DNA of 4,825 nt from IMG/VR virus record IMGVR_UViG_3300001149_000089. One strand, 5' to 3'. This stretch comes from a virus. Its lineage: Duplodnaviria > Heunggongvirae > Uroviricota > Caudoviricetes. Position numbers and translations under genes: made by a program. The notes beneath the pieces were generated by a model. That model was not told where the DNA came from. It ran no database searches and saw nothing but the letters and a program-made list of their open reading frames with translations. Shown one piece after another: positions 4,288 through 4,825 of this stretch; the first letter of the stretch is position 1; every line of letters starts with the position of its first letter.

Positions 4288-4825
4288 TTATTGTTTTCGA
4301 AAATTGATTATTATAAGCGCGAAAAGAAATGCTACAGCAAATAAGAGGACGATTGTCGGCGCTGGGGCTCTGTCGAGAAAATATAATAACCATACACCTG
4401 ATATTGTTATTGATATCGTTACGGCGATAAGTAATGCCTTATGAAAGCGATGCGTGATGAGGACAGCAATAGACCCTGGAGCTATTAATAGTATATAGAC
4501 AGAATAATTCCGACTGCTTTTAATGTGGCAAAAATGGTAGGCGATACCATGCAGAGTAAACCGTAATGTAATAATGATATCTGTAATCCGCTGACTTGTG
4601 CCTGTTGATAGTCAAGACAAAAATTCCTGAAAAAACGATACCTATAATGGTATCTTTCTTTATGATGCTATTATCTTTCAGATAGCCAGTTGCAATTGCA
4701 CAAAACAGTCCTACAATAAATGCACCAATTCCCAGCGGCATACCTATAATCCAGGCATAGAACTATGCCAGGAAACATTGCGTGGTTCATTGCATCTCCT
4801 ATTAGCGCCCAGTCTTTTAATACCA
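4288..4825 (-). pseudogene. Metal-ion (Mn/Zn/Fe-type) ABC transporter permease, degraded by frameshifts and an internal deletion; 5' end beyond window end
   Basis: Minus-strand frame entering from 4825 reads ...VLKDWALIGDAMNHAMFPGIVL; a second frame continues MPLGIGAFIVGLFCAIATGYLKDNSIIKKDTIIGIVFSGIFVL (track ORF 4520..4741); a third reads ...TIFATLKAVGIILSIYY*; a fourth reads ...LLIAPGSIAVLITHRFHKALLIAVTISITISGVWLLYFLDRAPAPTIVLLFAVAFLFALIIINFRKQ* with stop at 4288-4290. Order and motifs follow ZnuB/MntB/SitC-type permeases, but about 70 residues between the third transmembrane segment and the C-terminal region are missing. Confidence 0.6.

Follow-up and report, generated by a model that had tools for sequence, protein, structure and literature searches.

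A frameshifted SitD-like permease relic among phage-derived scraps between ttcA and uspF in Escherichia coli

The stretch of DNA analysed here (4,825 nt; hereafter the window) is identical to positions 1516696-1521520 of the Escherichia coli APEC O1 chromosome (NC_008563.1). To the left of the remnant that concerns us, RefSeq annotates in APEC O1 the right end of a lambdoid prophage with J, Lom, tail fibres and cdtABC of type IV. Two cargo genes from the right end of this ttcA prophage, both on the minus strand and both annotated by RefSeq, fall within the window: an alpha/beta hydrolase (1-678) and, beside it and the type IV cdtABC genes, an omptin protease (863-1813). The protease is approximately 91% identical to K-12 OmpT, and its substitutions seem to be clustered in a few short stretches. 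At 2602-2644 (no strand assigned), the 5′ end of ttcA is duplicated in a piece that corresponds to K-12 ttcC, delimited by alignment to K-12 ttcC and to the ttcA 5′ end of UTI89 and by coverage breakpoints. Here the CDT-IV/omptin prophage has its right junction, and an older remnant begins. Just inside the right end of the same prophage, about 100 nt from the ttcA-derived att core, stand two perfect 18-nt direct repeats, GGCAAAAATGGGGCAAAA, with a spacing of 30 nt (2450-2497); these could be candidate arm-type binding sites for an integrase.

From window position 2602 onward, the sequence is identical in UTI89, which has no prophage at this place. The 2.3-kb block that extends from the ttcA 5′-end copy to uspF is absent from K-12 and consists of a string of degraded pieces. 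The first is the C-terminal fragment of a phage tyrosine integrase (int′, 2703-2933, minus strand), annotated by RefSeq and matched by a PHROG integrase family (E = 1e-22) and by Pfam Phage_integrase (E = 1.7e-9); in UTI89, as in prophage-free strains, int′ abuts ttcA directly. A fragment of a DUF1627 phage protein (2946-3061, plus strand; RefSeq) comes next, followed at 3064-3166 (no strand assigned) by a scrap resembling the lygF or Ren-like exclusion region of lambdoid phages, which shows 74-78% identity to Rac-SA53 and other coliphages. Further right, a spacer of 34% GC holds a very hydrophobic 59-codon ORF (3720-3899, plus strand; MRKILMYLCISIWIVISC...) directly upstream of a hok relic. 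Neither this ORF nor the other small ORFs in 3100-3900 gave a match in Pfam or PHROGs, and it may be either a chance ORF or a small membrane peptide. The hok relic itself (3905-4030, plus strand) is a decayed fragment of a hok-type type I toxin gene that carries no RefSeq annotation here and is 78-82% identical at the nucleotide level to annotated hokD and Hok-Gef genes elsewhere in E. coli. It translates as ...VTKKDLHQVRI*GGQMEVDIYT, which resembles the C-terminus of Hok. An Rfam scan found no family at the gathering threshold, and in e-value mode it returned chance-level matches only. 

The last piece of the block is the subject of this study. RefSeq/PGAP annotates it as a pseudogene, "metal ABC transporter permease, frameshifted", on the minus strand at 4288-4889, so that it extends past the end of the window. 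An initial annotation made from the window sequence had described 4288-4825 as a metal ABC permease gene decayed by multiple frameshifts and lacking its centre, and translated searches bear this out. When E. coli SitD is compared with the region by tblastn, four collinear minus-strand segments are recovered with E values from 1e-19 to 1e-24. Segment 1 (frame -3) runs from 4904 to 4758 and covers SitD residues 9-57 at 59% identity (E = 1.4e-24); its portion inside the window is 4758-4825, corresponding approximately to residues 36-57, and the remainder was read from UTI89 and APEC O1. A lineage-specific 1-nt insertion at 4757 (an A on the plus strand) separates it from segment 2 (4756 to 4619, frame -1), which covers residues 58-103 at 70% identity (E = 2.8e-22). 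Segment 2 ends at the junction of an internal deletion (4617-4619), at which approximately 55-57 codons (SitD residues ~104-159) are missing; since the length of the deletion is not a multiple of three, the frame changes here too. Segment 3 (4616 to 4494, frame -3; E = 1e-19), whose codons were inspected by eye, covers residues ~160-201. At 4492-4493 two bases are left of the codon for SitD S202, which amounts to a 1-nt deletion, and segment 4 (4491 to 4297, frame -2) then covers residues 203-271 at 64% identity (E = 1.4e-23). The original stop codon is at 4288-4290.

These positions agree in part with those proposed beforehand. The frame switch expected near 4755-4765 was found at 4757, within that range. 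The switch placed near 4600 is real and sits at 4617-4619, where it proves to be the deletion junction itself and not a separate lesion, while the third switch, predicted near 4520-4540, exists but at 4492-4493, 30-45 nt away. The suggestion that the permease is spread over four reading frames has to be corrected, as four frames are impossible on one strand: there are four segments in three frames, with segments 1 and 3 sharing one. The window allele has two single-base frameshifts, and there is no complete ORF of about 280 codons carrying all membrane segments. SitD codons 1-8 and ~104-159 are absent, the internal deletion (a phage sitD has 667 nt where the relic has 492 nt over the same stretch) having removed about one fifth of the length. 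Read in this way, the relic is a pseudogene derived from the SitD family and not a functional member of it, unable to make a transporter. That it is a dead SitD-like permease relic we regard as practically certain.

The same sequence recurs widely. Among 5426 complete E. coli genomes, 1035 (19%) carry the relic at 98-100% identity; all 1035 copies span 689-690 nt and none is intact. Over 3900-4825, identity is 100% in at least 20 independent genomes among the matches listed and at least 99% in 384. The same "frameshifted" permease annotation is found in NC_008563.1 (APECO1_RS31015), in NC_007946.1 (UTI89_RS29940) and in strains U14A and M16807. The relic is already known, RefSeq having flagged it as a pseudogene, and it is an ordinary one. 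To the idea that a sequencing or assembly artefact has disfigured an otherwise intact gene we attach next to no probability: identical sequence occurs in many independently sequenced complete genomes, every carrier has the same 689-690 nt with the deletion of more than 160 nt included, and none of the single-base lesions lies within a long homopolymer run. The earlier judgement that a single sequencing error was an unlikely cause was thus sound. In the mouse E. coli strains 8178 and 3-72, an insertion of ISEc40 (IS630-like) splits the relic further, and each of the two halves bears the annotation "metal ABC transporter permease".

Lesions were compared across five alleles, namely the APEC O1/UTI89 type, those of strains U14A and M16807, and those of two Logan assemblies. 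All five have both the internal deletion and the loss of 1 nt at 4492-4493, and these two lesions are for that reason taken to be old. The insertion at 4757 is confined to the APEC O1/UTI89-type allele; segments 1 and 2 are in frame in U14A, M16807 and the two Logan assemblies. In the latter two, a different 1-nt deletion near 4558 reconnects the frames by chance to give a 199-codon ORF, the source of a protein of 199 aa (P0001; 40 member sequences) in which approximately 36 residues are out of frame relative to SitD. Frame-breaking indels that fall at different sites in different lineages bear the signature of neutral decay. This pattern weighs against the notion that the relic still yields a functional product, such as a truncated membrane protein from the 199-codon ORF, which we find barely credible. 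The P0001 ORF is open in its 40 member sequences, but it is so by way of a lineage-specific 1-nt deletion and with its out-of-frame stretch; the first 8 codons and the central 55-57 codons are absent, the partner genes are absent too, and the window allele is in four pieces.

SitD is the second membrane permease subunit of the Fe2+/Mn2+ ABC importers of the SitABCD/YfeABCD type, and the comparisons made here place the relic in its family. For the conceptually repaired translation, the score in Pfam ABC-3 (PF00950) is 120.6 bits, well above the gathering cut-off of 20.1 (E = 1.1e-34), the match falling in two stretches because of the central gap. A word-indexed search of 5.8 billion proteins returned 7225 homologues, with E values of about 1e-75 for the best named matches; most of the named top matches are SitD and the remainder bear generic metal or iron ABC transporter permease names from related genera. 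The best matches in this search reach 50-59% identity over the full query, gap included. By tblastx, identity is 72-82% to segments of sitD as against 37-55% to sitC, and the relic appears clearly nearer to SitD than to SitC. NCBIfam holds no SitD HMM, and its AztB, SloB and ZnuB models scored far below their cut-offs, as they also did for authentic SitD.

Over the retained columns, the relic shares 64-70% amino-acid identity with members of the SitD family, which are themselves 70-80% identical to each other. It is collinear with the SitD (YfeD-type) proteins of E. coli, Shigella and Salmonella over residues 9-103 and ~160-271, and it keeps SitD motifs including GDAM(S/N)HA, ATGYLKDNS, DYQQAQ, LKAVGIILS, LLIAPG and APAPTIV. 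Apart from the amino-acid divergence just given, it differs from them in its two frameshifts and missing codons, in a nucleotide identity to sitD of 66.5% and in a GC content that is 12 points lower. Eighteen of 130 near-invariant family columns are altered, mostly to residues with AT-rich codons; this could reflect decay, a divergent lineage, or both.

The GC content of the relic is 37.4% (GC3 32%), as compared with 42.8% (GC3 39%) for the omptin gene, 49.2% for sitD and 49% for uspF. The permease gene had been called AT-rich relative to ompT, and this holds, the contrast being a modest one. Long neutral decay could in principle have produced both the AT-richness and the divergence, if the relic were a decayed duplicate of present-day E. 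coli sitD whose source was either the icd prophage or a ColV/ColBM plasmid. The closest named relative is indeed sitD, a sitABCD locus is present elsewhere in APEC O1, and many of the substitutions run toward AT-rich codons. Set against this, the relic diverges from sitD at 33.5% of nucleotides and yet has no stop codon in its 200 retained codons, where 4.5-7 would be expected if all of the divergence from sitD were neutral (P = 0.011 to 0.0004 for none); the test excludes only descent from the present E. coli sitD clade and is compatible with moderate decay from another SitD. The relic has undergone just three or four indel events, divergence among E. coli sitD alleles is 5% or less, and there are no intermediate alleles in the 5426 genomes. 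On balance, we consider descent from today's sitD very improbable. The progenitor is better pictured as a working, divergent SitD homologue of low GC that was separate from the sitD now found in E. coli, and we infer that its inactivation was comparatively recent.

No closer intact relative came to light in the databases searched. Among the 5.8 billion proteins, none exceeded 59% full-length identity except P0001, which we considered as a closer intact progenitor and rejected, for it comes from this very relic, in a different allele at the same E. coli locus. GTDB species representatives offered only ordinary SitD/YfeD at 45-56%, and tblastn against phage genomes gave nothing above 55%. IMG/VR yielded ordinary phage sitD and one viral contig carrying the relic, and no intact close relative of the progenitor. 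A 79% match on a 203-nt contig of Moellerella wisconsensis was discarded as a relative: the contig shares 97.5% identity with ordinary sitD of E. coli, as against 71% with the relic. A bolder proposal would make the relic the sole surviving trace of an unsampled low-GC SitD-like Fe/Mn lineage on a ttcA-integrating lambdoid phage, with the re-opened 199-codon frame perhaps expressed as a truncated inner-membrane protein of residual effect, for instance by interfering with SitCD assembly; there is, in our estimation, scarcely any chance that this is so.

The initial annotation had also placed the upstream genes of a metal-uptake operon past the end of the window, and this expectation failed. In APEC O1 and UTI89, the relic ends approximately 80 nt beyond the window. 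The resemblance to SitD starts at 4904, and from about 4906 the sequence is one that K-12 and approximately 4370 other genomes have in common. Upstream lie the uspF intrinsic terminator (4951-4970) and uspF itself (4978-5412), 88 bp from the permease pseudogene, and then ompN and nifJ; no ATPase, binding-protein or SitC gene adjoins the relic. Since sitD is the last gene of sitABCD and core sequence starts at about 4906, the equivalents of sitA, sitB and sitC have been deleted together with the first eight codons. Lost with them is the stretch ahead of sitA where a promoter under Fur/MntR control would lie. The APEC O1 chromosome has an intact sitABCD at another place, and for this reason the relic is uninformative about metal uptake by the strain.

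In K-12, the same chromosomal site, the ttcA-uspF interval, is that of the cryptic prophage Rac and the ttcC fragment. There, ttcC is followed by a 28-nt integrase scrap and then by core sequence up to the uspF terminator, without the 2.3-kb block. Where the scrap joins the core sequence, there is a GATTA microhomology with the 5′ end of the relic, as though K-12 had arisen by deletion from a remnant of this kind. As a clean derivative of the B2 arrangement it finds partial support, the GATTA junction speaking for it and the sequence of the scrap against: 4 of 28 positions differ from the B2 int′ (K-12 versus UTI89), mostly at third codon positions. The K-12 and B2 remnants may come from different integrase alleles.

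How a SitD-like gene came to lie here is best explained, we think quite probably correctly, by carriage on a ttcA prophage that has since eroded, leaving a non-functional orphan relic of a distinct low-GC progenitor. Arrival on a prophage, taken as a claim by itself, seems likely; it is drawn from the neighbours of the relic and from analogy. At the right end of the icd-integrated lambdoid prophage of APEC O1, J and tail fibre genes are followed by sitD, sitC, sitB and sitA, transcribed from sitA towards sitD, and by an icd′ attR fragment, and an ST131 strain has the same organisation. Relative to its int′, the relic matches this intact sitABCD in position and polarity. sitD is also present in phage genomes of the database. 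Among temperate lambda-type phages from infant-gut E. coli, 70% carry sitABCD (PMC6969025), and so does phage Perceval of strain LF82 (PMC9928086). With the phage-borne loci (phage 21, Perceval, the ev207/Lambda_2E9 group and the icd prophages of APEC O1 and ST131) the relic shares its place at the end opposite the integrase, its inward transcription and its setting in phage-derived sequence beside a known prophage attachment site. It differs in that its prophage has been reduced to scraps, with tail-fibre genes, attR and sitABC gone, in that the attachment site is ttcA and not icd, and in that its allele belongs to a divergent low-GC lineage as opposed to the E. coli sit clade, which is 95-100% conserved.

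The opposing view, which we consider unlikely, is that the relic descends from an ancestral, non-phage chromosomal Fe/Mn operon between ttcA and uspF that was eroded by repeated prophage integration and excision at ttcA. In its favour, no attR intervenes where the relic meets core sequence at about 4905, and the approximately 1.1 kb on its other side, as far as the ren-like scrap, has no match in phage genomes and is not recognisably phage besides the hok piece. That neither attR nor tail-fibre genes survive beside the relic weighs against prophage carriage. The sequence downstream of sitD′ has no similarity to that downstream of sitD in the ST131 icd prophage. An ancestral operon would, however, sit poorly with the foreign composition of the relic (37% GC against 49% in the adjacent uspF), with its presence in just 19% of complete E. 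coli genomes, with its inclusion in one contiguous block with the int′, DUF1627′, ren-like and hok′ scraps, and with a position and orientation that fit known phage-borne sit cargo.

Under the prophage-cargo explanation, the SitD-like gene would have been a cargo gene, or "moron", carried by a lambdoid prophage at its right end when this entered the ttcA site. That prophage would later have been reduced to the 2.3-kb string of int′, DUF1627′, ren/lygF-like, hok′ and sitD′ pieces, and the CDT-IV/omptin prophage would then have entered the same ttcA site in APEC O1. The old deletion and frameshift are those common to all carriers, and the newer indels those specific to lineages. For annotation, the relic is a trap: 199-aa "ABC-3" gene calls of the P0001 type are spurious and should be treated as pseudogene products. 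The finding otherwise matters little beyond the locus itself, where it would provide a tidy example of a prophage cargo gene eroding in place, at a ttcA site that appears to have been used by successive prophages.
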